DNA of 64,000 bases from an uncultured Coriobacteriales bacterium (GTDB taxonomy: Bacteria; Actinomycetota; Coriobacteriia; Coriobacteriales; Eggerthellaceae), in contig CAMPNZ010000001.1 of the NCBI GenBank assembly GCA_946892075.1, positions 1,257-65,256 of the forward strand, in the 5' to 3' direction. Shown piece by piece: positions 19,322-56,998 of the stretch. The position numbers and the translations under genes were made by a program. Numbering within the stretch: position 1 is the stretch's first letter; each line of letters starts with the position of its first letter. The notes under the pieces were generated by a model. That model searched no databases. It saw nothing but the letters and a program-made list of their open reading frames with translations, and had not been told where the DNA came from.

Positions 19322-19669
19322 ACACCTCTTTTCAACCCCCCGCGTGTGTTGTGTTTCAATCACTCTATTATATCGAGAAACGCCTCAAGCTCCAAAACCA
19401 CGCCCCGCCGCGCCCTGCGCTCTACAAAACGCCTGTTCAGAAAATTGCTAATGTGTAGATTTTGTTTACACGTTCCTGCGCAAAAACCCGCGCCACCCGT
19501 TCCCGCTCACCAAAAACGCAAGATGAAATGCGCGATTTCTGCCTCAATTACGTGCACAAATTGCGAAGATGCGGCCGTGCGCCCGCGCGTGTACGTGTAT
19601 ACTTGACACTACATAAACAAATACCCAAACGCGGAAATTATCAAACGCGGCATATCAAAGGATTTTCAA

Positions 19670-25268: not shown

Positions 25269-25489
25269 AAGGGGGTTACGCTTCTGCGTTCGCGTCCGCC
25301 GCGACACGCAAGCCGCGACACGCAGGCCGCGCACCCCGCAAGCCGCTGCCGCCCGTGCCCAGCACCGCACCCCGCGCCAGCACCAGCACCCGCTCCCGCA
25401 CCGCGCGCCCGGCACCGCGCGAGCGCTGCCATCTGACCAGCGGCACCATCCGTTCCCGCACAAGACCTTACGTGATGAAAGGGGTACTT

Positions 25490-26794
25490 ATGATAAACTT
25501 CATACAGCGCGATCGGTATTTAACCAGGTTAATCGACAAAAAAGAAAACGGCCTCATCAAGGTTATTACGGGCATAAGGCGCTGCGGGAAAAGTTTTCTT
25601 TTGTTTCATTTGTTTCGAGCATACCTTCTTTCGCACGGAATTTCTGAAGAACAAATTATCGCTGTTACACTTGACGATGATCGCTTTGTGCGATACCGCA
25701 ATCCAAGTGAATTATCGCGCTTCATACGTTCGCAAATTACCAGTTCAAAGATGTATTATGTCTTTATCGATGAAGTTCAATACGCAATTAGCAAAAATGA
25801 GCTTCAGCACCCCGATGAAATAAAGCTTTATAACGTGTTAAATGGACTGATGCGGCTTCATAATGTTGATATTTATGTTACGGGAAGCAATTCTAAGCTG
25901 CTTTCCACCGATGTAATGACAGCATTTAGAGGAAGGGGCGATTCTGTAGAACTGTATCCGTTGTCGTTTAAGGAGTATTTTGAGTTCTCGAAACAGGCCG
26001 CTCATCTGGACAAAACGCAAGCGTTTGAAGACTATGCGCTGTATGGCGGTATGCCTCAACTGCTAACATATACGCGCGATGAAGAAAAAGAGCTGTACCT
26101 TAAAAAGCTATTTTCAGAAGTGTATTTTAAGGATATCTGCGATCGTTATACCGTAAAATTGCCCGAGGTATTAGAAAGCCTTGCTGATGATTTATGTTCG
26201 TCGGTGGGTTCACTTACCAATGCAAAAAAAATTGCCAACACACTAGCAACGGTAAAGAATAATAAGGTGTCTGTAAGCACAATCGCAAAATATCTCACGT
26301 ATTTAACCGATTCATTTCTGTTTTCCGAGGCAAAGCGATACGACGTGAAAGGAAAGAAATATTTTGAGTATCCTGTAAAATATTATTGCACTGATATCGG
26401 CCTTCGCAATGCTCGGTTAAATTTTAGGCAGCAAGAAGAGCCGCACATTACAGAAAATATCCTCTATAACGAATTGATTGCGCGCGGATATTCTGTTGAC
26501 GTTGGTATTGTAGAATTGAACGAATCTGTGGGGGGTAATCCGCGAAAAAAGCAGTGCGAAATTGACTTCGTTGTTAATAGGGGCTCACGACGCTACTACA
26601 TTCAGTCTGCGTTATACCTTGATACCCCCGAAAAACTTGCTACCGAGTTACGTCCGCTAAAGCATACGAACGATTTTTTCAAGAAAATTATCGTATCAAA
26701 AACCCTTGCGCGACCCTGGTTTGACGAAGATGGCATTGTGCACATGGGTTTGTATGATTTTTTGCTGGATGAGAACTCACTTAACTGGTCGTGA
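25490..26794 (+). CDS. AAA+ ATPase of the AAA_14 + DUF4143 family (COG1373-type), low-GC
   Basis: AAAGGGG SD 5 nt before the ATG; Walker A GIRRCGKSFLL, Walker B YVFIDEVQY; about 435 aa typical of the family; GC about 42% against a ~57% background. Confidence 0.75.
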   Translation: MINFIQRDRYLTRLIDKKENGLIKVITGIRRCGKSFLLFHLFRAYLLSHGISEEQIIAVTLDDDRFVRYRNPSELSRFIRSQITSSKMYYVFIDEVQYAISKNELQHPDEIKLYNVLNGLMRLHNVDIYVTGSNSKLLSTDVMTAFRGRGDSVELYPLSFKEYFEFSKQAAHLDKTQAFEDYALYGGMPQLLTYTRDEEKELYLKKLFSEVYFKDICDRYTVKLPEVLESLADDLCSSVGSLTNAKKIANTLATVKNNKVSVSTIAKYLTYLTDSFLFSEAKRYDVKGKKYFEYPVKYYCTDIGLRNARLNFRQQEEPHITENILYNELIARGYSVDVGIVELNESVGGNPRKKQCEIDFVVNRGSRRYYIQSALYLDTPEKLATELRPLKHTNDFFKKIIVSKTLARPWFDEDGIVHMGLYDFLLDENSLNWS

Positions 26795-27597: not shown

Positions 27598-27761
27598 AAA
27601 AATAAGGCTATTTTGCATACTTGCGCAAAAGGTAATTGACAAATTGCGCTGTAATGCAGAAAATACTAGTTACGCATTCGAGCACGCGCGCGTTTAATCG
27701 TCTGAATGTTTATTAGTTTGGGTGTTTGAGCGTTGTTTTTGTAAGCTTGAATGTAGTTTGT

Positions 27762-27837
27762 GGGGATGTAGCTCAGTTGGGAGAGCATCACGTTCGCAAC
27801 GTGGGGGTCGTGGGTTCGAATCCCATCATCTCCACCA
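27762..27837 (+). tRNA. tRNA-Ala (anticodon CGC)
   Basis: cloverleaf with G3:U70 pair in the acceptor stem, anticodon loop TTCGCAA, T-loop TTCGAAT, encoded CCA. Confidence 0.9.
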
Positions 27838-28142
27838 CAACTTCTTTAATCTTTTATGCGCTTGAAGTGCGCAAACATTCTTTATAACCATACTTTCTAT
27901 CGTTGGATAACACTCATCGTAACTAATTCGGGAAGTAATGCTTAACGGACGTGCTCAAAGGCTGTACGTGCGTGCCTCTGCCTGACTTTTTAGCAAAACG
28001 CAATTATGACAACGCAAGCCTACGCACCCGCCGCATGTGTTGTAATTCGTTTCACCAGGTAAAATGCTATTTTGGCGATGTGTTTAATGCCAAAAATATA
28101 AAAGGTAAAAATCCATTTTTTGAATCTCAGAAATCAATTTTT

Positions 28143-28171
28143 TTGAATCTTAGGTTGGCAGAGCGTATAAT
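28143..28171 (+). promoter_or_regulatory. canonical sigma-70-type promoter (TTGAAT - 17 nt - TATAAT) in the low-GC islet downstream of tRNA-Ala
   Basis: perfect -10 hexamer and 5/6 -35 hexamer at 17-nt spacing, about 110 nt upstream of the small-protein gene pair. Confidence 0.45.
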
Positions 28172-28280
28172 CCAAGCAAAGTTGTACGTGGTGTCAGATA
28201 CGATTCAGTCAGGACTATAAAGACCTCTCATCTAAGAATTAGTGATAGAGCTAAAAATTCGTATGGAAGATAGGATAGCC

Positions 28281-28541
28281 ATGATTTCTTTTGAACAAGC
28301 CAAGAAAAAAGCACAGAATGACGTAAGCAATTTTCAAGAATTTGATTTGTGTGTAGAGCACGATAACGCTTTCGTGTTTTACAGTGGCTGCGATTGCGAA
28401 GATGAAGAACCTGTTATTGGTGGTTATACCTCGCCTTTTATTATTTGGAAGAAGGATGGGTCTATCGATTTCGGTTTTGCAGCTGCAATGTTTGATGATA
28501 CGTTAGGGAACGAATTAAAAAAGACGAAGCTTAACCATTAA
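28281..28541 (+). CDS. small hypothetical protein (86 aa), paralog of the next gene; immunity-protein-like
   Basis: AGGA SD 5 nt before the ATG; low GC; shares the pattern hydrophobic-YVF-Y...G...P.I..KK.G with the downstream ORF. Confidence 0.5.
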   Translation: MISFEQAKKKAQNDVSNFQEFDLCVEHDNAFVFYSGCDCEDEEPVIGGYTSPFIIWKKDGSIDFGFAAAMFDDTLGNELKKTKLNH

Positions 28542-28591
28542 CCTTTGAAGGCACTTAGCCGAGAATGTGTTTTAAGGTTTAGGAGGTAACA

Positions 28592-28816
28592 ATGGTTGAT
28601 TACGAGCAAGCGCTATCTATTGCAAAAGACCTTTTAGGGAAAGTCGATACATATTGCGAGTATAAAGACTATTATGTGTTTTCCTATCACACTCCCGTAG
28701 AACAGATATCAGACGCGAATGTTGTTGCTATAGAGAAAAAAACTGGGGAAGCCTATAGCTTTATTGGAGTAATTACAAAGCTTGGGAAAATACTTCGCCA
28801 AGGCAAAGTAAAATAA
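28592..28816 (+). CDS. small hypothetical protein (74 aa), paralog of the previous gene; immunity-protein-like
   Basis: perfect AGGAGG SD 6 nt before the ATG; low GC. Confidence 0.55.
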   Translation: MVDYEQALSIAKDLLGKVDTYCEYKDYYVFSYHTPVEQISDANVVAIEKKTGEAYSFIGVITKLGKILRQGKVK

Positions 28817-29090
28817 GCAACCGTTTCTAGATGTTGACACCACCCGAGTCGTCTGCACCCGAAGCCGCTATGGCAAGTAAAAATCAACAAGTCTTGAAAA
28901 GCCTGAGAACATAAATACAGACGCATGTCTTCACTATGCACCACCACGTACATTTCTTAGAACTCTATACCCGTTCCCCGTAACCACAAAATGCCAAATC
29001 GGCACCAATTCCGCGGTCGTGACCGTATTCCGCAGTTCAATATGGCACAATATAGCGCATAGAACCAAAAACCAGGGAGGGGGTTTGACA

Positions 29091-30929
29091 TTGGCTCAGC
29101 TTTCTATTGCGCCACAATCGCCTGATGATGCGCAGATTGCGCAATTTTTAGAAGACTTCGAGCGCCGCGTTCAAACAACTCCTCCAGGTATGTGCCCTGT
29201 TCAGCTGCAACTTAACCAGGTGCAAGCCGGTGCCGCGCAAACGTGCGGCAAATGTATTCCGTGTCGCGATGGATTGCCCCAGCTAGCAGCCTTGTTGCAC
29301 GATATTGTTGCGTGCACGGCTAGCCCCGAAACGCTTGATCAGGCGCGCGAACTGGCGCAGCTTATCAGCGAAACGTCCGATTGCGCTATTGGGTATCACA
29401 CAGCCGATGTGTTTCTGCAAAGCCTTCAAGCGCACGAAGCGGAGTTCAGTGCGCACGTTCAACAGCACGCTTGCCAGCCTACTATCGAGCAGAAAGTTCC
29501 GTGTGAGGCACTTTGTCCTGCTCATGTTGATGTTCCAGCATATATTGCGCTGGTGGCGCAGGGCGATAACGCCGCTGCGGTAAACATGGTTCGCAAAGAC
29601 AATCCGTTCCCGACAGCATGTGCGCTGGTCTGCGAGCATCCGTGCGAAATTCGCTGCAGAAGGCGGCTGATTGATGCGCCTCTTAATATCCGTGGCATAA
29701 AAAAGTACGCGTGCGATAATGCCCGCTGCGATACGGTGCCTACCCCCGTGCGCAATGTTGAAACGGGGCGAAAAATTGCCGTCATTGGTGGAGGTCCTAG
29801 TGGGATGACCTGCGCTTATTTTGCTTCGTTGATGGGGCATCGCGTAAGCGTGTTCGAAGCGCGCAAATCGCTGGGCGGCATGATGCGCTACGGCATTCCG
29901 GCATATCGCTTTCCGCGGGAACGTCTTGACGAGGATATTCGCGGAATCTTGAAGGTTGGCGGTATTGACGTTCACTATGAAACGCCTGTTGATACGCAAC
30001 TTTTGCATGAATTGGCGCGCGATTATGACGCGTTGTACGTTGCCATTGGCGCGCAAGCAGGAAAAACGCTTGATTTGCCTGGTGCGGATGCGCAGGGTGT
30101 ATTCTCGGCGGTGCAGGTGCTGGAACGCATTGGCGATGGAGATTATCCAAACTACCAGGGTAAACGTGTTGTTGTTATCGGTGGCGGTAATGTTGCGATG
30201 GACTGCGCGCGTACGGCGCTTCGTGCGAACGCGTCCGCGGTAACCGTGGTGTATCGTCGCAGGCGAGAAGACATGACCGCACTTCCTGAAGAAATTGACG
30301 CTGCTGCAGCGGAAGGTGTTGAGCTGTTGATGCTGGCGGCGCCTGTTGAAATTTCCGTTGATGAGCAGGGCGCATGCAAGGCGCTTATTGCGCAACCGCA
30401 GATGATTGGCCCTGTGAAGCGCGGCCGTCCGGCGCCCGTTACTGCGCTGCGTCCGCCGCTTACCATTCCAGCTGACGTTATTTTAATTGCTGTTGGGCAA
30501 GATATTGTAAGCGCGCCGTTTGAAGCGTTCGGCATGGCTGCAACGCGCGGTCGTTTTGCGGCAGACGAACATCTTTTGGCGCCAGGGCTTCGTAATGTGT
30601 TTGTGGGCGGCGACTGTCAAACGGGGCCTGCAACCATTATTCGCGCTATTGGTGCAGGTAAAGTGGCTGCTCGCAACATCGATCATGCGCTTGGGTACAG
30701 TCACACGCTGCCGTGCGACATTGTGGTGCCAACGCCCGCGCGCAACAATCGTACGGCAACGGGGCGCGTGAATGTGCCCGAGCGTTTGGTGCGCGACCGC
30801 AAGCACGATTTTCTTGAAGTTGAGCTTGAGAACACGCAGCAGGAAATTTTGCAGGAATGTTCGCGCTGTTTGCGCTGCGATTATTTTGGTTGTGGAACGC
30901 AAAAAGGGGGGAGGATTCGCTATGAATAA
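29091..30929 (+). CDS. fdhB: formate dehydrogenase beta-like subunit: NuoF-type 4Fe-4S/soluble-ligand domain fused to GltD-like NAD(P)H-dependent flavoprotein
   Basis: Cys clusters (CGKCIPCRDG; CEALCPAHVDVPAYI...CEHPCEIRC) then FAD/NAD(P) dinucleotide-binding motifs (IAVIGGGPSGMTCAY; VVVIGGGNVAMDCA); start ambiguous between GTG 29019 and TTG 29091 (AGGGAGG SD). Confidence 0.7.
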   Translation: MAQLSIAPQSPDDAQIAQFLEDFERRVQTTPPGMCPVQLQLNQVQAGAAQTCGKCIPCRDGLPQLAALLHDIVACTASPETLDQARELAQLISETSDCAIGYHTADVFLQSLQAHEAEFSAHVQQHACQPTIEQKVPCEALCPAHVDVPAYIALVAQGDNAAAVNMVRKDNPFPTACALVCEHPCEIRCRRRLIDAPLNIRGIKKYACDNARCDTVPTPVRNVETGRKIAVIGGGPSGMTCAYFASLMGHRVSVFEARKSLGGMMRYGIPAYRFPRERLDEDIRGILKVGGIDVHYETPVDTQLLHELARDYDALYVAIGAQAGKTLDLPGADAQGVFSAVQVLERIGDGDYPNYQGKRVVVIGGGNVAMDCARTALRANASAVTVVYRRRREDMTALPEEIDAAAAEGVELLMLAAPVEISVDEQGACKALIAQPQMIGPVKRGRPAPVTALRPPLTIPADVILIAVGQDIVSAPFEAFGMAATRGRFAADEHLLAPGLRNVFVGGDCQTGPATIIRAIGAGKVAARNIDHALGYSHTLPCDIVVPTPARNNRTATGRVNVPERLVRDRKHDFLEVELENTQQEILQECSRCLRCDYFGCGTQKGGRIRYE

Positions 30930-33900
30930 CACGTCCTCAAAGGCGAACGAGTTGCGTGCACGCATCTCGAGTGCGCTGTGCGATGGCGCTGGCGCTGGCG
31001 TTGATGCGTCTGGTGCGGATGGCATTTCCGCAGTTCAGGCGCAATGTGTGCGCGTAACAATTGACGGGCACGTGCTGGACGTTCCCTCTACAAGCACCAT
31101 TGTAGACGCCGCTGAACGCGCGGGAATTTCTATCCCCACCTTGTGTTATTTGAAGAAGTTGAATGCGATAGGCTCGTGTCGCATTTGTAGTGTTGAAGTT
31201 GCGTTTGTGCGCGACGATACTTCCACGAATGCGCAGCGTGAAGGCGCGCTCGCATCTGTTCCCCAGCCCGACGAGCTGTTTGCGCACGCGCAGCTTATGC
31301 CAGCGTGCAACACCAAAGTGCAAAACGGGATGCATATCCGCACGCAATCGGCGCGTTTACAGAGGTATCGCCAGCAGCTGTTGCGCTTGCTGTTGTGCAC
31401 GTATCGTCCGAACCCGCAGCGTTTTGCCCACGATTTTGTGCCGAATGAGTTTGAGCAACTGTGCATGCGCGAAGGCATCGACATTTCGTATTTGCTTCCT
31501 GAGCAGGCGGAACGTGGCGGCGCCAGTGCCAGCGGCCAGCCCGAACTTACCACCGAGCAGGCACAAAGCGCTCACGTGCTAAGAGGCCAGCCCGAACTTA
31601 CCACCAAGCAGGCTAAACCCGCCTCTGAACAGGAAGAACCCGCGAAACCGTTCCACGAACCCGCTTGCGTTCTTCCCTTTGAGCAGGACACACATCCCCA
31701 CGTGCACCACCAAGCTTCCGCAAAACGTCAGCCGTGCATTGACACATCACCGTTTCTGTCGTTCGACCCCAACATTTGTATTCGCTGTCAGCGCTGCGTT
31801 GCCGCATGTAACGAAGGCGCGGGCAATCACATTTTAGGAACGCAGCATCACGGCACACGCACGTCAATTTTGGCGCCGTTCGGAAGCGATTGGAACACAA
31901 ATACCTGCGAGAGCTGCGGTTGCTGTTCCGCGGCGTGCCCCACGGGCGCCATTTCTGAAAAAGCAACGCTGTCGTACGCGCACACAGAGCTCAAAAAAGT
32001 GCGTACTACCTGCCCACATTGTGGCGTTGGCTGCCAGTTCAATTTGATTGTGAAAAATGGTCGCATCGTCGATACCGAAGTGGTGTCAGGGCCTTCCAAC
32101 CAGGGCTTTTTATGCATTAAGGGCCGCTCGGCGTCGTTTAATTTTGTGCATTCTGCCGATCGTCTTTCGACGCCACTCATCAAAGACAAGGCCACCAACA
32201 CGTTTCGCAGTGCCACGTGGGATGAAGCTTTAAATTATGTAGCGGCGCGCCTTGGCAGTATTCGCGATGAGTACGGCGGCGATGCGATTGCGTCTTTTGC
32301 CTGTTCACGTTCCACAAACGAAGACGTGTATATGATGCAGAAAATGACGCGAACGGTGTTTCACACGAACAATGTCGACAGTTGCGCGCGCGTTTGACAC
32401 GCACCAACCGTTGCCGGTCTGGCAGCTACTCTTGGGTCGGGCGCAATGACAAATTCCATTCCCGATGTAACTGAACAAGCAGACGTCATTATGATGGTGG
32501 GAACGAATGCCGAGGAAGCGCACCCTGTACTGGGCATGCACATCCGCCGCGCCGTTGAGCGCGGTGCGCGTCTGATTGTTGTTGATCCGCGTACCATTCG
32601 CTTATCCGCGCGCGCCGACATTCATTTGAAGCTGCGACCTGGGACAAACGTTGCACTGTTCAATGGAATGACGAACATTCTTATTCAGCATAATTTGATT
32701 GACGAAGAATTTATTGCCCAGCGCACCGAAAATTTTGACGAACTGAAGCGTGTAGTTGCTGCGTATACGCCTGAACGCGTTGCCAAAATTTGTGGCATTG
32801 ACCAGCGCATGCTTGTTGAAGCTGCGCTGATGTATGGACGCGCGAACACCGCTGCCATTTTGTATTGCTTGGGCGTCACCGAGCACACTACGGGAACCGC
32901 TGGCGTGCTTTCGCTGTCGAATTTGGCCATGGCAGCAGGCAAAATTGGGCGTCCCGGCTGCGGCGTGAACCCCCTGCGCGGGCAAAATAACGTGCAGGGC
33001 GCATGCGATATGGGCGCCAACCCCGACAACTTCCCCGGCTATCAAAAGTTTACAACGCTGGGCGTGTTCGAGAAGTTCGAGAATGCGTGGGGCATGTCGC
33101 TGAATCGTACGGTGGGCCATTACGCAACCGACCAGTTCAACCGCGCACTTGATGGTTCGCTGAAGGCGATGTACATCATGGGAGAAGACCCAATGCGCAC
33201 CGACCCCGACATTGCGCACGTGATGAAAGCCCTGAAAGCGCTTGATTTTTTGGTTGTGCAAGAGCTGTTCATGACAGAAACGGCGAAGATGGCCGACGTG
33301 GTGCTGCCGGGCTGCAGTTACGCCGAAAAAGAGGGCACGTTTACGAACACCGAGCGCCGCATTCAGCGCGTGCGAGCTGCGGTTCCTGTGCATGAAGGCG
33401 CGCGGCTTGACACTGACATTTTCATTGACGTGATGAACCGCATGGGGTATCCGCAGCCGCATCTAACGGCAGCGGAAATTATGGATGAAGTGGCGCGCCT
33501 TGACCCTGCGTATGGGGGAGTTTCGCATGCGCGTCTTGACAGTTCTGAGTGTTATAACGATGGATTACAGTGGCCTGTTCCTACGGAAACTTCACCCTCA
33601 ACAGCAATTTTGCACGTTGGCGCCTTTACGCGTGGGCGTGGTTTGTTTAAGCCCGAGGAATATCGCGCACCTGCTGAAACGGCCGATGCGCGCTATCCGA
33701 TTATTATGATGACAGGGCGCGTGTTGCACCAATACAATGCGTGTGCGATGACGGCGCGCACGAAAGGCATCAATGAGCTGGGCGATTCGTCGTTTATCGA
33801 AATCAATACCAGCGATGCCAGCCAGTTGGGCATTGAAGATGGCGACCGTGTGCGCGTGTGTTCGCGACGTGGCTGCATTACGTCAAGCGCGCGTGTGTCC

Positions 33901-34086
33901 GACAAAACAACGCCCGGACATGCGTGGATGCCGTTTCACTATGAAGATGGCAACAGTAACTGGATTACGAACGGCGCTTTGGACGATCATGCGCGTGTGC
34001 CGGAATACAAGGTGTGCGCCATCAATGTTTCGCGCGTGCAGCGTTCGACGGCGCATGCTGGTGCTGGCGCTGGTGCGGGGTCGTAA
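30922..34086 (+). CDS. fdhA: selenocysteine-containing formate dehydrogenase alpha subunit (molybdopterin oxidoreductase); TGA at 32395-32397 read as Sec
   Basis: GGGGGAGG SD; N-terminal 2Fe-2S and 4Fe-4S ferredoxin motifs, MopB CPHCGVGCQF, then ...NNVDSCARV-TGA-HAPTVAGLAATLGSGAMTNS, which matches the FdhF Sec-site consensus (CARVUHGPSVAGL); both ORF-track pieces are in frame 1. Confidence 0.85.
32404..32435 (+). promoter_or_regulatory. SECIS-like hairpin starting 7 nt (outer stem) to 13 nt (6-bp inner stem) after the UGA
   Basis: GUUGCC-GGUCU-GGCAGC 6-bp stem with apical loop GGUCU, enclosed by CCAA/UUGG; position and loop resemble the E. coli fdhF SECIS. Confidence 0.6.
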
Positions 34087-34151
34087 GCTGGCTCGATTCG
34101 TTTCCGTTCCCGTTCCATCCGTTCCCGCGCAATAAAAATTTTTCCCTCAAC

Positions 34152-34283
34152 ACTTTGAAGAAATGTCGATTTTCGGCAAAAATAACTTTGAAGAAATGTA
34201 GGTTTTTGCCAAATTCTACTTTGAAGAAATGTCGATTTTCGTATAAAATAACTTTGAAGAAATGTAGGTTTTTACTGAGTACT
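34152..34283. repeat. two tandem 66-bp units, each containing two ACTTTGAAGAAATGT(C/A)G(A/G)TTTT sub-repeats, directly upstream of the second DUF4143 ATPase gene
   Basis: direct reading. Confidence 0.75.
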
Positions 34284-34366
34284 AACTCTATAGTGCCTGG
34301 ATAAACGTATATTATACAATTGTTTTTCAAGGGATCTATTTTGCGTTAACTAAGAGGTGTATTGAC

Positions 34367-35707
34367 ATGTATATGCGCAGAAAAGCATACGATCAACTGC
34401 TTCACTGGAAACAGCACTTTGCAGATCAGTACGCCATAATGCTTGAAGGCGCACGTCGCGTTGGTAAATCAACCATCGCACGGGAATTTGCGCGCCGTAA
34501 CTATAAGTCGTATATTTTGATAGATTTTTCCTGCGCATCGCCTGATATTCGCGAATGCTTTAACGATGTATCAAACATGGATAGGTTTTTTCTGAATTTA
34601 CAAGCAGCAACGAATACCACGCTCCATAAAGGTAACTCCGTCATTATCTTTGATGAAGTGCAGTTATTTCCACAAGCACGACAAGCCATTAAGCATTTGG
34701 TGAAAGACGGGCGCTACCACTATATTGAAACGGGTTCTTTAATTTCAATCAAGAAAAACGTGAAAGACATCCTTATTCCATCAGAGGAAATGAAACTGCG
34801 CGTGCATCCTATGGATTATGAGGAATTTTTGTGGGCAACACAGCAAAATTACGACGTAATTAAGCAGCTGTATACTCAAAAGAAAGCTGTTGGAGGTGCA
34901 CTCACGCAAAAACTCATGCGTGATTTGCGAGTTTATATAGCGGTTGGCGGCATGCCTCAAGCAGTACAAGCGTATGTTCAAGGTAGTAATTTTGCAAAGA
35001 TCGACCAGGTAAAACGTCAAATTATTAAGCTTTACGAAGAAGATTTCAAAAAAATTGATATGTCTGGAAAATTATCGGCACTGTATCATGCGATTCCTGC
35101 GCAACTGGCAAAAAATACTCGCAAGTATTCCATTGCGTCTGCCATCAAAAAAAGAAAAAGCGCGCGCGATGATGAGTTGCTCTACGATCTTATTGACTCA
35201 TGTTGCGTTGTGCCTTGTTATAATTCCTGCGATCCGCGTGTGTCGCTGTCTCAAACCAAAGACCTTGCTACGTATAAGTTGTATCTTGCTGATACCGGGC
35301 TTTTTGTAACGCTGCTTTTTTGTGATAGGCCAGTTGCCGATAATGTTCTGTATACGAAGCTACTTTCCGATAAACTACCTGCTAATTTAGGGTATTTGTA
35401 CGAGAATCTTGTTGCACAAATGATAACTGCAAGCAATCGCGAACTGTTTTATCACACGTGGAATAAGCCAGGTAGCACGCACTATTACGAAATTGATTTC
35501 TTACTTTCTTGCGGTGCAAAGCTTGATGCTCTTGAAGTTAAATCGTCGGGGCTTGGTAAGCATGAATCTCTCACTCTGTTTCAAACAAAATACAGCCAGG
35601 TAATACATAGGGCGTACCTTCTTTCGCAGAAAGATTTTGCGTGTGTCAATACCGTTCACATGGTGCCACTGTATGCAGCACCAGCGCTCATAGGTTCGGA
35701 AACGTAA
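34367..35707 (+). CDS. AAA+ ATPase of the AAA_14 + DUF4143 family (second, divergent paralog), low-GC
   Basis: AAGAGGTG SD; Walker A GARRVGKSTIA, Walker B VIIFDEVQLF; 446 aa; GC about 43%. Confidence 0.75.
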   Translation: MYMRRKAYDQLLHWKQHFADQYAIMLEGARRVGKSTIAREFARRNYKSYILIDFSCASPDIRECFNDVSNMDRFFLNLQAATNTTLHKGNSVIIFDEVQLFPQARQAIKHLVKDGRYHYIETGSLISIKKNVKDILIPSEEMKLRVHPMDYEEFLWATQQNYDVIKQLYTQKKAVGGALTQKLMRDLRVYIAVGGMPQAVQAYVQGSNFAKIDQVKRQIIKLYEEDFKKIDMSGKLSALYHAIPAQLAKNTRKYSIASAIKKRKSARDDELLYDLIDSCCVVPCYNSCDPRVSLSQTKDLATYKLYLADTGLFVTLLFCDRPVADNVLYTKLLSDKLPANLGYLYENLVAQMITASNRELFYHTWNKPGSTHYYEIDFLLSCGAKLDALEVKSSGLGKHESLTLFQTKYSQVIHRAYLLSQKDFACVNTVHMVPLYAAPALIGSET

Positions 35708-35868
35708 AGTATGTTCCATTGATGTATTGCGTATTTCTCGCGCATGAGCGTCGGAATTTATGTTACAAAACGTTAAACGCTGTATGTAAGCTGTACTGAC
35801 CGCCGCTACTAACAAGAACGAAGTGACCTAAAACGCCAGATGAAACACAACATATCGACCGCGGTTGC

Positions 35869-36759
35869 ATGAGTAAGCAAGGTCTTATTGCCGGGTTTGC
35901 GTGCTACTTTGTATGGGGCATTCTGTCGATTTACTGGAAAAGCCTCGACGAAGTGAACTCCTACGAAATCATCGCGCACCGCATTTTGTGGTGCTGCGTG
36001 GTTACGTTCGTGGTGTGCAAGCTGCTTCACATTGATGTTTTAAGTCTTTTCAAGCAGAAACGCGCGTGGTGCATTTTAGTGCCAGCAGGCTTTCTTTGCG
36101 CGCTGAACTGGGGTTTGTATATTGCGGCCGTCAACGCTAACCACATCATCGAGTGCTCGATGGGCTCGTACCTCAATCCGTTGGTTAATATGCTGTTTGG
36201 CGTGCTGTTTTTCCGAGAACGGTTGAGCGTGGTGGAGATCATCGCCATCGCGCTGTGTGGCATTGGTATTTTATATTTCACGGTTGATTACGGCTCATTT
36301 CCGCTGATTGCCATTGTGCTGGCGGTGACGTTTGGCCTGTACGGCGCGCTCAAGAAAAAAGGAGCGTATCCGCCGGTAAGCGCCATTGCGTTTGAGTCGT
36401 TTTCGGTTACGCCAATTGCCCTGTTCATTCTTGTGTTCATGGCCCAGCAGGGAACATTGACGTTTTTGTCGAGCTTTTCTACTCCGCACGACATACTGGT
36501 GAACGTTATGCTGCTTGGAGCGGGCGCTGTTACGGCGTTCCCGCTGATTTTGTTTGCGCGTGCAGCAAATTCTATTCCACTTACCACCTTGGGTTTCTTG
36601 CAATACATAAGCCCTACCATTCAGCTAGGTATTGGCGTGTTTTTGTTTGGGGAACAATTTAGCACCGCGCACGCGGTGTGCATGACCTGCATTTGGATTG
36701 GTTTGCTGCTTGTTGCGCTTCACTCGCTGCGCAGAAGTAGAACGCGTTCGGTGGTGTAG
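35869..36759 (+). CDS. rarD: EamA/RarD-family transporter
   Basis: MSKQGLIAGFACYFVWGILSIYWKSL... 10-TM EamA pattern typical of RarD. Confidence 0.75.
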   Translation: MSKQGLIAGFACYFVWGILSIYWKSLDEVNSYEIIAHRILWCCVVTFVVCKLLHIDVLSLFKQKRAWCILVPAGFLCALNWGLYIAAVNANHIIECSMGSYLNPLVNMLFGVLFFRERLSVVEIIAIALCGIGILYFTVDYGSFPLIAIVLAVTFGLYGALKKKGAYPPVSAIAFESFSVTPIALFILVFMAQQGTLTFLSSFSTPHDILVNVMLLGAGAVTAFPLILFARAANSIPLTTLGFLQYISPTIQLGIGVFLFGEQFSTAHAVCMTCIWIGLLLVALHSLRRSRTRSVV

Positions 36760-46076: not shown

Positions 46077-46314
46077 ATGCGTCTTTCGACGGGTAGTTAT
46101 TTTCTCATAAGCGCGCTTGAAGTGCAAGCATAAATTCCAATTTTTGTAGCATAAGGCGCTGTTTCGCGATTGTGGAGCAGCAAAATAGCGCATTGCGTGG
46201 CTGAATATGGGTGCGGGTTTCTAGAGTTTCTGCAGGTGAAAGCTATATAGCGCTAGAACATTCCGCGCGTGCTGGGTTAGTTTGTTTTTCGCGTGAACGT
46301 GCCGCCGTGTTATT

Positions 46315-46378
46315 ACAGCCCAAGCACAGCCGCGTACCGGCTTTTTACAGCCCAAACACAACCGCGTACCGGCTTTTC
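46315..46378. repeat. 32-bp tandem repeat x2 (acagcccaa(g/a)cacа(g/a)ccgcgtaccggctttt) upstream of the tad locus
   Basis: direct reading. Confidence 0.6.
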
Positions 46379-46384
46379 ACCGCT

Positions 46385-46477
46385 CAACCACAGCCCCGTG
46401 CCGTGTTTCTGCATCCCACACACAGCCCCGTGCCGTGTTTCTGCATCCCACACACAGCCCCGTGCCGTGTTTTCGCC
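46385..46477. repeat. 32-bp tandem repeat x3 (cacacacagccccgtgccgtgtttctgcatcc) upstream of cpaB
   Basis: direct reading. Confidence 0.7.
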
Positions 46478-46580
46478 GTATTTTTGCAGCAAAATGGCGT
46501 GTTATTCGCGTGTTTTTGGCGTCTTTTTCGCGTATTTTGCCTGCCATACTTTCGCCAAGCACTTAAGGAAAGGACGCATC

Positions 46581-47417
46581 GTGCTTAAACGAAAACCATT
46601 ACTTCTTGCGTTGTTGCTCGCAGTACTTGCTGGTGGATGCGCGTTTCTGTTTTTTCAAAATGCGCGTCAATCGGCCGATGCTGCTCATCAGCAGCTTCTA
46701 AGCAAATACGGTGGCGAGCAAGTTGCAATTTGCATGGCGCGTCGGAATTTGGAGCCTGGTGAAACTGTGCGTGCGCGCGACGTGGAGGTAAAACACACGC
46801 TTGCATCGTTGGTTCCTGAGGGATGTTTTACCACGCCAGACGACATAGTCGACAAAACGCTTACCGCTTGCGTTGTAAAAGGCGAAGCATTCGTTAAGCG
46901 CCGTTTTGTTGCTGACGATACGGCAATGCGCGTGCCGCTTGGTTTTGTTGCGATAAGCGTGCCGCTGCGTTCAAGCTCTGTGGCACTTGAGCTAGTAAAA
47001 CCTGGATCTCGCGTGAATGTGTATGCCACGGGCGAGCAATCGAGTGCCCTGTTAGCTCAGCGCGTGTTGGTGCTTGCTTCCGCAAGCGCCAATCAGAAAA
47101 GCGAAAGCGCAGGTGCGCTTGCCTCGTGGGTGGTAGTTGCCGTTCCACAAAGTAAGGCGCAAGAGTTCGTGTCGGCAAGCAAGAAAACGCAGCTAACAGT
47201 TGTATTGCCAAGCTCTGATGAAGGTACGAACGCACCTGAAAATGCTTCGACAAAGGCGCCAGAAAATGCACGTGAACATGCTTCGACTACGGCGCCAGAA
47301 AATGCGCGCGTCAACGAAAATGCACCTGCGCGCGCAAATGCACCAGCGTCCGTTCCCACACGCACACCCGTGCCTGCCCACGCCTTCGCACCTTTGCGTG
47401 CAATCTACCAGCAATAA
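46581..47417 (+). CDS. cpaB: Flp pilus assembly protein CpaB/RcpC
   Basis: GTG start 6 nt after GGAAAGGA; N-terminal TM anchor, SAF-domain-like region (RRNLEPGETVRARDVEV), Pro/Ala/Asn repeat tail. Confidence 0.7.
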   Translation: MLKRKPLLLALLLAVLAGGCAFLFFQNARQSADAAHQQLLSKYGGEQVAICMARRNLEPGETVRARDVEVKHTLASLVPEGCFTTPDDIVDKTLTACVVKGEAFVKRRFVADDTAMRVPLGFVAISVPLRSSSVALELVKPGSRVNVYATGEQSSALLAQRVLVLASASANQKSESAGALASWVVVAVPQSKAQEFVSASKKTQLTVVLPSSDEGTNAPENASTKAPENAREHASTTAPENARVNENAPARANAPASVPTRTPVPAHAFAPLRAIYQQ

Positions 47418-47450
47418 GTACGTTTGTGGTTCTTGATGAAAGGAACGTTT

Positions 47451-49544
47451 ATGAATGCATTAGCTCCGTTACTTTGTGCGTCACCTTGTACCGTTGCTCA
47501 TTTGCAACACCGCTATGAGGGGCGTTTGTGCACGCAACCTGGGGGCGTGCGTGTGTGTCATTCTTCGCAGGAGCTTTTTGCGTTGCTGCGCGATTTTCCC
47601 TGTTCAAATGTGTGGATTCTCGATCCAGTAGATATTGAGCCTATTAATGTAGCAGCGCGCGTTAAGCAGGAGTATCACGACGTGCGCGTTAGTTTAGTAG
47701 CGCAGCAGCTGGGTGGTTCGTTAAGGTCGCGCGCATACGCGGCTAATATCGATGCGTTGTGGGATTATACCTTACTGTTCAAGCACCTTGATGCGCTTGT
47801 GACGGGCGATAGCGCTTCCGAATCAAGGGCGCCTTACCAATCGGCACGTTCAGCGCTGCATAACGAAAATGCCTGCCAACAGCACTCGTTTGTTTGCGGC
47901 AATGTTCAGGAACATGCTATGGAGAAAACGCCTCAAACGATAGCGTCTACCAGCACCAGTGTTCAGGAATATCCCATGGATAGCGCTTTTCAAGCACCAG
48001 CGTTTGATGGCTGTCCTGTTTATGAAGACAGCATGGAAAGTGCCTGGAGCAGCTATCAAAACAGCAATGATTCTGACGCGTATGATTGTAACGATGCTTC
48101 GCTGGTGCACGCGATGCCAAGTTTTCCGGAACACTTTTATTGTCCTGATGAAGAAAGTGTGGCAGAACGATTCAGTGCTCCGCTGCGTGCGCAGCGTGAT
48201 GCGGCGCAGTACGTACCAGTAGCAAACATGCCGCCTGAGCTGAACATGCTGATGCATGAAGCGCCGCAGTTCACACCTGCAAGCGCGCAGCCAACAAGCC
48301 CGCAGCCTGCGAGCGCACAGCCAGCAAACATGCAGCCAGCGAGTGTGCATCCCACGAGTGCGCCGTCAGCAAGCACACAGCCAGCAAGCGTGCAGCCAGC
48401 AAACATGCAGCAAGCAAAGGAGTCGTCGCCACGTGTTTCGCATGCAAGCGCGCTGCCTGCGTCGAGCGTTCCCATGCAACAGGCGTCGCACTCTATGCCT
48501 GCATGTTCGCAAACAGACGCACACGATGTTCATTTTTCGGGAAATGTAATAGCCCTGCTCAGCGGCACTGGAGGCGCAGGAAAAAGCACACTGGCAGCAC
48601 TTTTGGCTTTGCAAGCAGCGCGTAGCGGAAAGCGTTGTGTGTTGCTGGATGCGTCATTGCAATTCGCCGATTGCGCGCCGCTTTTAGGCATCGAACATCC
48701 AACCACATATGCTTCGATGCTTCAGGTGCTTGGCATTCCCGATCCAGTTCAAAATAGCGGATCTGCGCAGTGCACGGACGTTTCTTCGTCATTACCTGCA
48801 CGTGCGTCTGTGCAGCATTTTCCGTTTATGTTTGCGGCAGCACATGACATGTCACTTGCGTCATCAGGCGCTGCGTTGACTTCTTGCACCAGCACTGCAT
48901 CACCTGCAACTACCGCCGCGCACGTCACCAACGCCGCCGACGCCACCGACGCAACCCGTACTGCTAACGCATTTGCCCAGCATATGCAGCATCTCGTACG
49001 CTCGCGTTTGCCCTTATGCGTTTCTCTGGGGGCGTCGCTTGAGTATGCCGAGCGCTATGAACCCGTTCTTCCTGTGTTAATCGAAGCGCTGTCTGAGGCT
49101 TTTGATGTGGTAGTTGTGAACACATCAAGCTATTGGAGCGATTTACACGCCTTGCTGTTAGAGAAAGCTGCGCAGCCGCTTATGCTTATCGACCAGCGCG
49201 TACAGTCGCTTAATGCCGCATGTCAGGTGGTTGATTTATGCACGCGGTGCGGCATTCCCACGCATTCAATTCGCTACGTGCTCAATAAGTACACGCGCAA
49301 AGGGCCGGTGTCGCTTGAGCGTGCGCGACACGCCTTAGGCGATGTTACGCTGCATAGTGTTAAGTATGGCGGCGCTGATGTTGAAACAAAATTGCTTGCA
49401 AGTTCAGGCGCGGCGGCGTTGGAGAACAAAAACCCATTGTGGTATGGGCTTAAGGAACTGGCTTGTGACATTATGCCCTCGCAACCGCAGCGCTGCGCGT
49501 CATTAGGTGCAGGTGGGTTTAACGCTTTAGAAGGACGTGGCTGA
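47451..49544 (+). CDS. tadZ: pilus assembly ATPase TadZ/CpaE (receiver-like N-domain, long disordered PAS-repeat linker, ParA/MinD-type ATPase)
   Basis: GAAAGGAA SD; C-terminal deviant Walker A (LLSGTGGAGKSTLAALLA); repeated QPASAQPANMQPASV linker. Confidence 0.75.
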   Translation: MNALAPLLCASPCTVAHLQHRYEGRLCTQPGGVRVCHSSQELFALLRDFPCSNVWILDPVDIEPINVAARVKQEYHDVRVSLVAQQLGGSLRSRAYAANIDALWDYTLLFKHLDALVTGDSASESRAPYQSARSALHNENACQQHSFVCGNVQEHAMEKTPQTIASTSTSVQEYPMDSAFQAPAFDGCPVYEDSMESAWSSYQNSNDSDAYDCNDASLVHAMPSFPEHFYCPDEESVAERFSAPLRAQRDAAQYVPVANMPPELNMLMHEAPQFTPASAQPTSPQPASAQPANMQPASVHPTSAPSASTQPASVQPANMQQAKESSPRVSHASALPASSVPMQQASHSMPACSQTDAHDVHFSGNVIALLSGTGGAGKSTLAALLALQAARSGKRCVLLDASLQFADCAPLLGIEHPTTYASMLQVLGIPDPVQNSGSAQCTDVSSSLPARASVQHFPFMFAAAHDMSLASSGAALTSCTSTASPATTAAHVTNAADATDATRTANAFAQHMQHLVRSRLPLCVSLGASLEYAERYEPVLPVLIEALSEAFDVVVVNTSSYWSDLHALLLEKAAQPLMLIDQRVQSLNAACQVVDLCTRCGIPTHSIRYVLNKYTRKGPVSLERARHALGDVTLHSVKYGGADVETKLLASSGAAALENKNPLWYGLKELACDIMPSQPQRCASLGAGGFNALEGRG

Positions 49545-49545
49545 T

Positions 49546-51950: not shown

Positions 51951-51963
51951 GGGGGAATGGAAG

Positions 51964-53594: not shown

Positions 53595-54152
53595 ATGCAG
53601 TTTGCGTCTTTACATTCTGCACCTTTGCAACCTGCACCCTTGCAACCTGCACCTTTGCGGCGCGGCTATCGCTGCTTGCGCACGCGCGGCCAAAGCTGCG
53701 TTGAAGCTGCTTTTCTTCTTCCTGTGCTGTTAGTTTTTCTTCTAGTGCTGTTGCAACCTGCACTTATGCTGTATCATGCGCTCATTTTGGAAAACACGTG
53801 CCAAGAAGCGTGTCGTGTGTTGGCAACGTGCTCAAACGATCAAGACATGCGCGCGCTTGATAGTTTCATCACGCATCGCCTCCAGGCGCTTCCGGCGTTT
53901 TTTGCTGCTAGTGACGATGCTGATGAGCACCCCGATTGGAGCATCACCACGCAAGGCAATGCTGCCTCGCGCGAAGTGGGCGTAACGATTGAAGGCCAGG
54001 TGCGCGCGCTTCCCCTGGTTGGTGGCTTGTTTGCGGGTAGTTTTGGGGCAAGCAGCATTCCCATTAAAATTTCGCGCACGCTGGTTGCACATGCGAACTG
54101 GGAAACCAAACAGGGCATTGACGCTTCAAGCAGTGCAGGAGCGTGGTATTGA
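53595..54152 (+). CDS. tadE: TadE-like pilus assembly protein (pseudopilin)
   Basis: AAGGAAAGGA SD; RGQSCVEAAFLLPVLLVFLLVLL matches the TadE-like N-terminal motif. Confidence 0.65.
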   Translation: MQFASLHSAPLQPAPLQPAPLRRGYRCLRTRGQSCVEAAFLLPVLLVFLLVLLQPALMLYHALILENTCQEACRVLATCSNDQDMRALDSFITHRLQALPAFFAASDDADEHPDWSITTQGNAASREVGVTIEGQVRALPLVGGLFAGSFGASSIPIKISRTLVAHANWETKQGIDASSSAGAWY

Positions 54153-56410
54153 TGAGCGTTGTGAACATGGTATGTAAGCGCCTTTTCGCGTCGCATTTCC
54201 GCAGGCAACTTTCTGTGTTACATCTTTGCTTGCAACCTTTTGCCTTGCGTCGCACCCAGCGCCCTTCTGCATCGACATTGCCTCACAAGCATCAGTTTCA
54301 GCCTTGCCCACGCCCACGCGTCTTTGCTTTGCATCTTCACAAGCGCGATGGTGGTTTTACAACTTTTGGATGTGCGCTTGCCATCCTTATTAGCCTTACG
54401 CTTATTTTTTCGCAGCTTGAAATTTATCACGTGAACACGGCGTGTGCTGTTACGCAAGAGGTGGCCGATGTTGCTGCTTTAGGCGCAGCTCACGAAGTTG
54501 CGCGCTTCGTAAAAGTGGCACGCATATGCGATTCGGTTGTTCTAACACTTTCGGTATGCGGCGCGGCGTGCGCTGTTGTGGGGCTTATTTGTTTGTGTAT
54601 TCCGCCCGTATCTGCTGTTGGCACTACCTTGCTTAAAGCTGCTCACAAGTGCATCAGCATAAGCGACACGTTCTCGAAAAAAGCGTGCAAAGCGCTTGAT
54701 TCGTATCAAGATGCGCTTCCTTTTTTGTGTACGCTTAAAGTGTTGCAAACGGCGTACGCTAACAAGGGCGGCATGCATCGTAATGCGTATGCTGGCCTGG
54801 CGTTTTTGCTGCCATCTGATGGCAAAATGCTCTCACGCGAAGAATCTTCATTGGGCACACAGCAGATAGAAAAGCTCGACGAGTACAAAAAGCCGCTGAA
54901 AGAAATGGGCGAAGCGATGTCAAAGAAGCGTCGCGCGTGTGACCAGGCAAAATTGCGTGCGTTTCAGGCTGATTGCGGAGGCTCTGAGCATCCATCAAGC
55001 ATGTATGAACGTGCGCGCGCGTTGGGAGATGTTCCTGCGTATCGAAATCCGCAGTACACAAGCGTTGATGCGTGGAATTTTTCGTGTGCGTTGCAGCGTA
55101 CACAAGCGTATTACGAAGCCCGCGAACGCATGGAATACTCTCGTTCGAGCAATCCAGATGAGCAGGCTCAATCGTATGCGCGTTTGTGCTTTTATCGCTA
55201 TATGGTGCAACAGCTTCAGCAGTCCTACATCCATGAAACAGACGATAGTTTTAGCGCGTCACTTCCTTTTATCCCCCGTAATACGCATCAAATGCGAACG
55301 ACGTCGCTGTATACCGACGCCTTGTTTCCTGTGTTCAAAGACGAAGACGGCTTCGATGTGTTTTGCGCGTATCCAGGGGCTCCTGGCTCAAACGAAGCGT
55401 ATCGCTATGGTTCGCTTGAAGAATTTGAAGCAACGCGCGCGCCAAGTTCGCCAGCAGGGGTGTTACGCGTATCTGACATGGGGAAAGTGGCTGCTGCGTC
55501 AAGTGCTATCAACAACGGCTTCGAGTTCTATTTTACGCAATTTATCAATGCAACGCGCGATTATGAAAAGCATGCACGCGACCTTAAGCCCTTGCAACAA
55601 AAAACGAAACACAAGCTTGATGGTGCATTTGGTGAAGTAGTAAAGCTTGTTAAAAGCATCAAAGACCGAAGAATTTATCCCTATCCGCCGGGGCGCGATG
55701 GAGTGTGTTGCGCGCTTATTAACACGTCAAGCGTGTCGCTGCACTCGTTATTTAGCAGCCCTTTTATCAAAAAAGACACTGTTATCAAGCAACGCTTTGC
55801 GCTTTCGGCAGCTACCTTGGTGCGCGATGAAGATGCTACGCCGTCGTTTTCATCGGCTATGCAGGGTTTTAGCAATCGAGCTTCAAGTTTGTTTGCGGGC
55901 GTGCCGCTGGTGCTGAATTGCTGGCTTAGCCTGGTGAATTTATACGGAACAGGGCAAGACATGCTTATATCTGGCATTGAGCACATGTTTGATGGTGTTC
56001 CTTTGCTGAACACGACGGGCATCGGACGCTGGGCAGCGCAGCGTTTTAAGAGCCTCATCTGCGATTTAGGGTTCGACAAAATAGACATGGCTCCCTGGCG
56101 TGCCGTAAGCGTGAATTCGCGCATCGTGCTGCAAAGCGCTACTGATGGCGTGCCGCTGGTGTTGCGTCGTATAAAAGAAACGATGTTTATCAACGAGCAC
56201 GACAAAATACGCATCTTGCTTGACATGTTTGGTAAGAGTTCAGACCTATTTGATGGCAGTGCGGCCGACAGTGCGCATGGGGGAGGCGATGCTTCTTTGC
56301 CTGGTAGCGTTGGTGGCGAAACGTTTGATGCTTTGCGTGAGCGCGTAAAAGATGTTATCCCTGATGGCGATGCGCTTATTGCGCTGTTGTCTGACGGCTT
56401 AAGAGAGTGA
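54152..56410 (+). CDS. large TadG-like pilus-associated protein (752 aa)
   Basis: ATG overlaps tadE stop (TGATG); N-terminal RDGGFTTFGCALAILISLTLIF resembles the Tad/TadG N-terminal domain; rest has no recognisable domain. Confidence 0.5.
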   Translation: MSVVNMVCKRLFASHFRRQLSVLHLCLQPFALRRTQRPSASTLPHKHQFQPCPRPRVFALHLHKRDGGFTTFGCALAILISLTLIFSQLEIYHVNTACAVTQEVADVAALGAAHEVARFVKVARICDSVVLTLSVCGAACAVVGLICLCIPPVSAVGTTLLKAAHKCISISDTFSKKACKALDSYQDALPFLCTLKVLQTAYANKGGMHRNAYAGLAFLLPSDGKMLSREESSLGTQQIEKLDEYKKPLKEMGEAMSKKRRACDQAKLRAFQADCGGSEHPSSMYERARALGDVPAYRNPQYTSVDAWNFSCALQRTQAYYEARERMEYSRSSNPDEQAQSYARLCFYRYMVQQLQQSYIHETDDSFSASLPFIPRNTHQMRTTSLYTDALFPVFKDEDGFDVFCAYPGAPGSNEAYRYGSLEEFEATRAPSSPAGVLRVSDMGKVAAASSAINNGFEFYFTQFINATRDYEKHARDLKPLQQKTKHKLDGAFGEVVKLVKSIKDRRIYPYPPGRDGVCCALINTSSVSLHSLFSSPFIKKDTVIKQRFALSAATLVRDEDATPSFSSAMQGFSNRASSLFAGVPLVLNCWLSLVNLYGTGQDMLISGIEHMFDGVPLLNTTGIGRWAAQRFKSLICDLGFDKIDMAPWRAVSVNSRIVLQSATDGVPLVLRRIKETMFINEHDKIRILLDMFGKSSDLFDGSAADSAHGGGDASLPGSVGGETFDALRERVKDVIPDGDALIALLSDGLRE

Positions 56411-56416
56411 TGTGCG

Positions 56417-56998
56417 ATGGTAGAACAACGTTTGCACAGAACATTTTTCGCGCGCATGGTGGCGGCGTTTGGGCTGAAAATGGTGGTGGAGATGGCGGTG
56501 TTAGCGGTACGCATGGTGGTTCGCATGGTGGCGGGCTGGTGGAGAAAGAAGCGCGGACATGGGCTTTTATGCACCCAACCACGAAGGAGCACATGCGGGC
56601 AAATGACTATCGAGTGCGCCATCTGCTTTCCGGTTCTTATTGCACTTGCGCTGGTGAGCTATAACGCAATGAGTTTCATATGTGCATGCAGTGAATTTGA
56701 TCGGCAATTTTGCGAAGAAGTGCGCATTCACGCAAGCTCGCTTGATGCGTACAGCACGGTTACGAGCGTGTGCGATGACATTAATGAAGCTATGAACACG
56801 CATTACGTGCCGCCTGAAAACCGCATCATAACAGCACGTGAACAGGGGCTTGGCATAGTGCGGTTCACCGGGGAGATGATTTTCGAGCCAACGCTTTTTG
56901 GCAATCGCGTGTTGCAAGGTATGGGTTTCGCACAGTTGCCATCATTGCATCACACCATTTCATTAGCGTGTTCATGCATGAAGCTTGACGCATTGTAG
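56417..56998 (+). CDS. second TadE/TadF-like pseudopilin (start uncertain)
   Basis: contains GQMTIECAICFPVLIALALV prepilin-like motif preceded by a basic leader. Confidence 0.45.
   Translation: MVEQRLHRTFFARMVAAFGLKMVVEMAVLAVRMVVRMVAGWWRKKRGHGLLCTQPRRSTCGQMTIECAICFPVLIALALVSYNAMSFICACSEFDRQFCEEVRIHASSLDAYSTVTSVCDDINEAMNTHYVPPENRIITAREQGLGIVRFTGEMIFEPTLFGNRVLQGMGFAQLPSLHHTISLACSCMKLDAL

Follow-up and report, generated by a model that had tools for sequence, protein, structure and literature searches.

The fdhA locus

We analysed a 64,000-nucleotide (nt) stretch of DNA from an Eggerthellaceae bacterium (the window, whose positions are used throughout), and in particular a region on its plus strand, 30922-34086, that is interrupted by an in-frame TGA and yet very probably constitutes a single gene, fdhA, predicted to encode a selenoprotein: the selenocysteine (Sec)-containing alpha subunit of a molybdenum- or tungsten (Mo/W)-bis-pyranopterin formate dehydrogenase. 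Frame 1 holds both of the open reading frames (ORFs) concerned, 30772..32397 and 32446..34086, and all that separates them is the TGA at 32395-32397, which can be read directly from the sequence; an earlier note, made from the letters of this DNA, had placed the two ORFs and the stop correctly. Read through, the frame that opens with the ATG at 30922 and closes with the TAA at 34084-34086 comprises 1054 codons, a single one of which is an internal stop, and the 562 codons downstream of that stop contain neither a second stop nor a frameshift. The junction is NNVDSCARV*HAPTVAGLAATLGSGAM, a read-through translation identical to the one in the earlier note, where it had been written NNVDSCARV-U-HAPTVAGLAATLGSGAM.

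A Shine-Dalgarno-like GGAGG (30910..30914, plus strand, read from the sequence) lies 7 nt 5' of the ATG at 30922, where the start of fdhA and the end of the upstream gene have 8 nt in common (ATGAATAA), an overlap also present in the relatives that we call L082, L083 and L086. Because of the GGAGG and the shared overlap we favour 30922, rather than 30772, as the start of fdhA, which makes the TGA codon 492.

Identity of the read-through protein

In the 1054-residue product Pfam recognises, from the N-terminus on, a 2Fe-2S domain, a 4Fe-4S dicluster module and then the Molybdop_Fe4S4, Molybdopterin and Molydop_binding domains. The TGA interrupts the Molybdopterin domain (PF00384), with profile positions 1-80 matched before it and 97-352 after it; the alternative of a genuine domain boundary at this point, which the earlier note had raised, is thereby answered, since the stop falls within a domain. 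The result is one conserved ORF with an in-frame UGA and the same protein family on either side. When the read-through protein was compared with the PDB by phmmer, the alignments ran unbroken across the TGA site, with R. capsulatus FdsA (6tg9, 2e-195) and E. coli FdhH (1aa6, 5.7e-169) among the matches. The TGA position corresponds to Cys386 (CARVCH) in 6tg9 and to X (Sec) in 9t1s, an F420-dependent formate dehydrogenase.

The catalytic core is 41.6% identical to that of E. coli FdhH, the product of fdhF, and residues C8, C11, C15, C42, K44, U140, H141 and R333 of FdhH are matched by C364, C367, C371, C398, K400, U492, H493 and R686 of the window protein, so that the Sec, the adjacent His, the Arg and the Cys ligands of the 4Fe-4S cluster are common to both. 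The predicted Sec492 is thus the counterpart of Sec140, and the expectation that it would align with Sec or Cys of FdhF/FdhA orthologues is borne out, the Cys-type homologues having Cys there. The three domains, the Sec/Cys-His pair, the catalytic Arg, and the four Cys and the Lys of the proximal 4Fe-4S cluster are those of a Mo/W-bis-pyranopterin guanine dinucleotide (bisPGD) formate dehydrogenase of the FdhF/FdhA/FdsA type.

The in-frame UGA across homologues

In the protein collection, the best 120 full-length homologues all have Cys where the window has TGA (CARVCH[SGA]). A different picture comes from DNA: a scan of the GTDB species set with the very conserved pattern NVQGACDM gave 80 orthologous loci among the matches listed, and the codon at the Sec site is TGA in 47 of these and TGT or TGC in 25. 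Seven of the eight remaining loci also have TGA (CART*H or a variant), so that TGA is found at 47 + 7 of the 80 listed. Across homologues the aligned residue is Cys or Sec and never Trp, and the family accordingly contains both Cys homologues and a characterised Sec homologue (E. coli FdhH, U140).

The closest locus among the matches listed in the contig scan is 64% identical to the window FdhA, and nearer relatives came from a search with the N-terminal fragment. That search returned many matches of ~355 amino acids (aa) and a few of 463-505 aa, lengths that fit a cut at this TGA, including relatives at 96%, 91%, 90%, 87% and 81% identity. The TGA, the hairpin described below and the split gene calls are all kept in independent assemblies, namely L082 (ENA; amino-acid identity to the window FdhA 96-99%), L086 (Logan; 90-96%), L083-L085 (ENA/NCBI; 64-71% for L083) and Eggerthella sp. 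AM16-19 (L006). The Nei-Gojobori ratio of nonsynonymous to synonymous change (dN/dS) 3' of the TGA is 0.044 against L082, 0.074 against L086 and 0.068 against L083, and in the 5' part 0.15, 0.16 and 0.12, respectively. Purifying selection therefore extends over the coding sequence beyond the UGA, and the low values there argue that the downstream half is translated.

A conserved hairpin downstream of the UGA

Directly 3' of the UGA lies a candidate selenocysteine insertion sequence (SECIS). Its apical hairpin (32410..32426, plus strand) consists of a 5' arm GUUGCC (32410-32415), a loop GGUCU (32416-32420) and a 3' arm GGCAGC (32421-32426), and the first base of its 6-bp stem is the 13th nt past the TGA. 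Both the single-sequence fold and the orthologues contain this stem and loop, in agreement with the earlier note, which had described the element in the same place and called it SECIS-like; comparison shows a conserved, covarying element of the fdhF/fdhA type. In the loop, G and U at 32417-32418 are the counterparts of G23 and U24 in the SECIS of E. coli fdhF (positions counted from the U of UGA) and stand as far from the codon as they do there. The same note had added an enclosing CCAA/UUGG stem, and this part fared less well: the letters are present (CCAA at 32404-32407, TTGG at 32432-32435), but the minimum free energy (MFE) structure pairs the lower region otherwise, and in the orthologues 76% of cells are paired while one of the four pairs is mostly unpaired. 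Since comparative support for it is weak, we dropped the lower stem from the SECIS.

The hairpin follows the codon. TGA loci have stems of 6.3 bp on average, an MFE of -10.6 kcal/mol for the hairpin and a GGUCU loop in 42 of 49 cases, whereas at Cys-codon loci, which encode a nearly identical peptide (V-A-G-L-A) at the hairpin site, the corresponding values are 1.1 bp, -3.1 kcal/mol and 2 of 25. For a gap-free alignment of 48 TGA-type sequences RNAalifold independently arrives at exactly this 6-bp stem, with no other pairing. Pairing in the stem amounts to 99.6% across the alignment and drops to 18-48% if its 3' partner is shifted, and compensatory double changes occur in three of its six pairs (columns 21-33, GC/UA/AU/CG; columns 24-30, CG/AU; columns 22-32, GC/AU). 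Two of these three, 21-33 and 24-30, join third-codon positions on both strands, and protein constraint is therefore no explanation for the covariation at those pairs.

A covariance model (R1), built from the 47 TGA loci outside the window and run with filters off, gave a single match in the 64 kb, at 32392-32451 (68.4 bits, E = 2e-13), the next best scoring 10.6 bits. With this model the scores are 66-71 bits for held-out TGA loci, 22-57 for orthologues of the Cys type and 32.5 for E. coli fdhF, so the window is placed in the TGA class. We take 32392..32451 (plus strand) as the extended SECIS context, which also covers the match to the Rfam family SECIS_3 (RF01989) that a sensitive local scan located at 32392-32450 (model positions 1-59 of 59, 43.5 bits, E = 3.7e-9). 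No other Rfam family matches in the region, and the SECIS_3 match agrees with the UGA in strand and register.

In one Lachnospiraceae metagenome-assembled genome (locus L013) the main fdhA is of the Cys type (43.4 bits with R1), and a second, TGA-type SECIS match of 70.2 bits lies ~8 kb off, at 19588-19647 on the minus strand, opposite to that of the main gene; Sec and Cys fdhA paralogues appear to stand side by side there.

Alternative explanations

Several observations weigh against a selenoprotein at this locus. None of selA, selB, selD and tRNA-Sec was found in the 64-kb window, where all sizeable ORFs were scanned with NCBIfam or Pfam and RNA genes were sought with ARAGORN and Rfam. Taken singly, the sequence folds no more stably than expected by chance (z = -0.36, with 72 of 200 shuffles folding at least equally well), and the association of the hairpin with TGA rather than with Cys codons (Mann-Whitney p ~1e-11) is uncorrected for shared ancestry. 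The predicted hairpin lacks the bulged U17 of E. coli, its U17 being paired with G31 in a continuous 6-bp stem below the 5-nt GGUCU loop. Finally, the SECIS_3 match falls short of the gathering score of 63 bits and goes unreported at default thresholds, at which Rfam finds only two tRNAs in the window. As regards the last point, the three TGA orthologues tested are also sub-threshold (L034, 49.8 bits; L006, 38.0; L001, 36.8), and because they score below 63 bits just as the window does, the threshold seems to be tuned to the bulged subtype and so to exclude the present one; a tRNA-Sec gene lies within 10 kb of fdhA in L001 and in L024. The model assumes a bulged register like that of E. coli, and four of its pairs consequently come out as non-canonical in the window. 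As regards the folding energy, it is the comparative signal and not thermodynamics that carries the case for the predicted hairpin, and we regard that signal as decisive. As regards the sel genes, Sec decoding has indirect support from the selection 3' of the TGA, from the hairpin and from the occurrence of tRNA-Sec and selB in most Eggerthellaceae (PMC13462651).

These points have to be set against what the other explanations would require. A nonsense mutation from TGC or TGT to TGA could have killed a Cys-type fdhA and left two decaying remnants: a single base change suffices for this, Cys-type orthologues are common (25 of the 80 loci listed, plus the Raoultibacter protein P0001 of the same family), and a pseudogene would sit well with a window that has no sel genes. 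The TGA, however, persists in lineages whose amino-acid identity falls from 96% to about 49-64%, the 562 codons behind it are intact and under a dN/dS of 0.04-0.07, and the SECIS hairpin covaries and is specific to TGA loci, which leaves a pseudogene with a very slim chance. Two separate genes, for a 491-aa Fe-S subunit and a 546-aa catalytic subunit, are what gene callers report in every relative, just as the earlier note had warned that annotation by stops would yield two pieces, and an ATG does lie 16 codons past the TGA. But the break interrupts a Pfam domain (Molybdopterin), the stretch of 16 codons from the TGA to the ATG at 32446 encodes the conserved HAPTVAGLAATLGSGA segment, and no ribosome-binding site can be read from the sequence before that ATG; an error of sequencing or assembly, the other way in which the TGA might be spurious, is ruled out by the presence of the same TGA in independent assemblies of different samples. 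A gene pair or an error at the TGA is accordingly highly improbable.

The remaining explanations concern the code itself. Reassignment of UGA to Trp is known from 34 Eggerthellaceae metagenome-assembled genomes (MAGs) that have a guanine-plus-cytosine (GC) content of 31-40% and lack prfB, tRNA-Sec and selB (Parks et al. 2026, PMC13462651), and the window is itself from Eggerthellaceae, so that its codon might encode Trp under genetic code 4. Its leucyl-tRNA synthetase is 97% identical to a metagenomic protein and ~71% identical to those of Berryella wangjianweii and Eggerthellaceae MAGs, and the named best matches of FdhA include Raoultibacter and Eggerthella. The reassigned lineages have no UGA stops, and most other Eggerthellaceae possess tRNA-Sec and selB (PMC13462651). 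In the window, by contrast, the GC content is 52%, TGA ends 6 of the 39 confident genes (several of them in ATGA or GTGA overlaps with the next gene), and the TGA of fdhA is the only one that breaks a recognisably conserved gene, at a residue aligned with Cys or Sec. From the GC content, the TGA-ending genes and the single interrupting TGA we conclude that the standard code is in use and reject the Trp reading, to which we assign next to no probability. In a sister clade of Eggerthellaceae, according to a proposal by Parks et al. (PMC13462651), it was Sec recoding that prepared the way for UGA reassignment, and one may imagine an organism at an intermediate stage of such a change in the genetic code, without a working Sec pathway, with the UGA and the hairpin retained and with UGA decoded otherwise (for example as Cys or Trp by a near-cognate or suppressor tRNA); we consider this very unlikely. 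A Sec-encoding fdhA is the explanation with which we proceed.

Relation to known selenocysteine systems

The E. coli fdhF gene (NC_000913.3) and the window are in codon-for-codon register around the UGA, GTC TGA CAC GGC CCA TCG GTT GCA GGT CTG in the former corresponding to GTT TGA CAC GCA CCA ACC GTT GCC GGT CTG in the latter. The minimal E. coli SECIS is a 17-nt upper stem-loop situated 11 nt past the UGA, which SelB contacts at U17 and G23, the bulged U17 being required for SelB binding (PMC8659212). The bulged E. coli pairing is not adopted by the window sequence, in which G23 and U24 are nevertheless present, and the unbulged stem is also formed by the 47 TGA-type orthologues of alignment A1, drawn from Firmicutes, Deltaproteobacteria and other groups. 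At the protein level, FdhH differs in having no N-terminal 2Fe-2S/ferredoxin module, and in having hydrogenase 3 as its partner rather than a flavoprotein of the NfnB/GltD type.

The Sec-containing FdhA proteins of Firmicutes and Deltaproteobacteria, such as the NADP-dependent formate dehydrogenase of Moorella, are another close parallel. They have in common with the window protein a NuoG-like N-terminus joined to a Mo/W-bisPGD core, a TGA at the equivalent codon and a SECIS of the form GUNGCC-GGUCU-GGCNNC with an unbulged stem of 6-8 bp (L051 of Moorella mulderi, and 46 + 6 other loci). The crystal structure of the Moorella thermoacetica SelB-SECIS complex was reportedly obtained with an RNA bearing this type of hairpin. 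Amino-acid identity to these proteins is 39-64%, and the clade of the window differs from them in lacking PF10588 and in carrying lineage-specific insertions. The best overall matches are FdhA/FdsA proteins of the Cys type, among them R. capsulatus FdsA (6tg9, as above) and Raoultibacter timonensis FdhA (P0001, 65% identity). In architecture they agree with the window protein, and their motif is CARV-C-H, with Cys in place of Sec and no downstream hairpin.

Proposed mechanism and electron transfer

By analogy with E. coli and Moorella, a mechanism for the decoding of this codon and for the use of the resulting residue can be proposed. During translation the hairpin, 12 nt past the UGA, would present its GGUCU apical loop to SelB, and SelB-GTP-Sec-tRNA(Sec) bound at the loop would compete with release factor 2 for the UGA and bring Sec to that codon. 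In the folded enzyme Sec492 would ligate the Mo/W atom beside His493 and Arg686. The [4Fe-4S] clusters of FdhA may then relay electrons from formate to the product of the upstream gene (29019..30929, plus strand), a predicted NfnB/GltD-type NAD(P)H-binding FAD/Fe-S subunit.

The upstream gene is identified by Pfam, by NCBIfam PRK12771 (580 bits) and by PDB matches to 9bov, 9n5u, 8oh5, 5jca and 4ylf, and its product combines a NuoF-type 4Fe-4S region with Fer4_20 and Pyr_redox_2 (FAD/NAD(P)) domains. Its start codon is uncertain, relatives being called at 612-629 aa. Because of this domain content and of the translationally coupled gene pair, the enzyme is probably an NAD(P)-linked formate dehydrogenase or CO2 reductase. 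The organism would, as these predictions indicate, depend on selenium plus Mo or W for NAD(P)H-linked formate/CO2 metabolism.

The window FdhA is unusual in one part of its N-terminal region. By Pfam, it has no PF10588 motif (His-x3-Cys-x2-Cys-x5-Cys, a [4Fe-4S] site) between the 2Fe-2S and dicluster domains (31350-31750, aa ~145-275), and the motif is also missing from L082, L086 and L083, while it is present in Eggerthella L006 and in 119 of the best 120 full-length homologues. The region reads 'LLLCTYRPNPQR--FAHDFVPNEFEQLC' in the window as compared with 'SNHGLDSTDYCFSCVKNGACELQ' in L006. Since the gene remains under purifying selection, FdhA of the window clade seems to have dispensed with one cluster of the usual electron-transfer chain.

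The protein also bears lineage-specific additions (30922-31070, 31200-31290 and 31500-31720): an N-terminal extension of ~50 aa containing Gly-Ala repeats, a 26-aa insert in the 2Fe-2S domain, and a low-complexity insert of ~60 aa with a duplicated 'GQPELTT(E/K)QA' segment. These additions are common to L082 and L086 and are not found in L083 or L006. The C-terminal end of FdhA is HAGAGAGAGS.

Implications for annotation

The main worth of this work is a correction of annotation; the mechanism is the textbook one, and no new insight into Sec insertion is gained. Gene callers that obey stops cut fdhA into its 491-aa and 546-aa pieces, and public protein collections hold such pieces for close relatives, together with many more candidates of ~355 aa. 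Splitting FdhA in this way hides a functional formate dehydrogenase, and the selenium dependence of gut and oral Eggerthellaceae is understated as a result.

Neighbouring regions

A scan of 27600-35900 for promoters and terminators performed no better than on shuffled sequences. Upstream of the fdh operon, between a tRNA-Ala(CGC) gene at 27762-27837 and the partner gene, lies an AT-rich stretch (27840-29018, 38-40% GC) whose ORFs are all small, 99 aa at 28242-28541 and 74 aa at 28592-28816; the equivalent stretch of L082 has genes of 86 and 74 aa.

Further downstream, beyond a tRNA-Val gene, a pilus locus of the Tad/Flp type occupies 46293-52971 (CpaB, a CpaE-like ATPase, TadA and further genes), and past it are several ORFs without a family match in the NCBIfam and Pfam scans. 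A second pair of ORFs in one frame, 54143..56410 (755 aa) and 56417..56998 (193 aa), separated by a TGA at 56408-56410, is found downstream of the Tad-pilus genes. Neither Pfam nor NCBIfam shows homology here, the junction lacks a SECIS-like fold (z = -0.30), and 6 nt past the stop there is an ATG; we judged the pair to be two ordinary genes.

On either side of the fdh operon are two paralogous genes for AAA_14/DUF4143 ATPases, at 25355-26794 and 34367-35707, with a GC content of ~40% compared with 52-57% in their neighbours. The copy downstream of fdhA is missing at that place in the 96%-identical L082, which has the upstream copy only, and this suggests that the downstream copy is a recently inserted or mobile gene.

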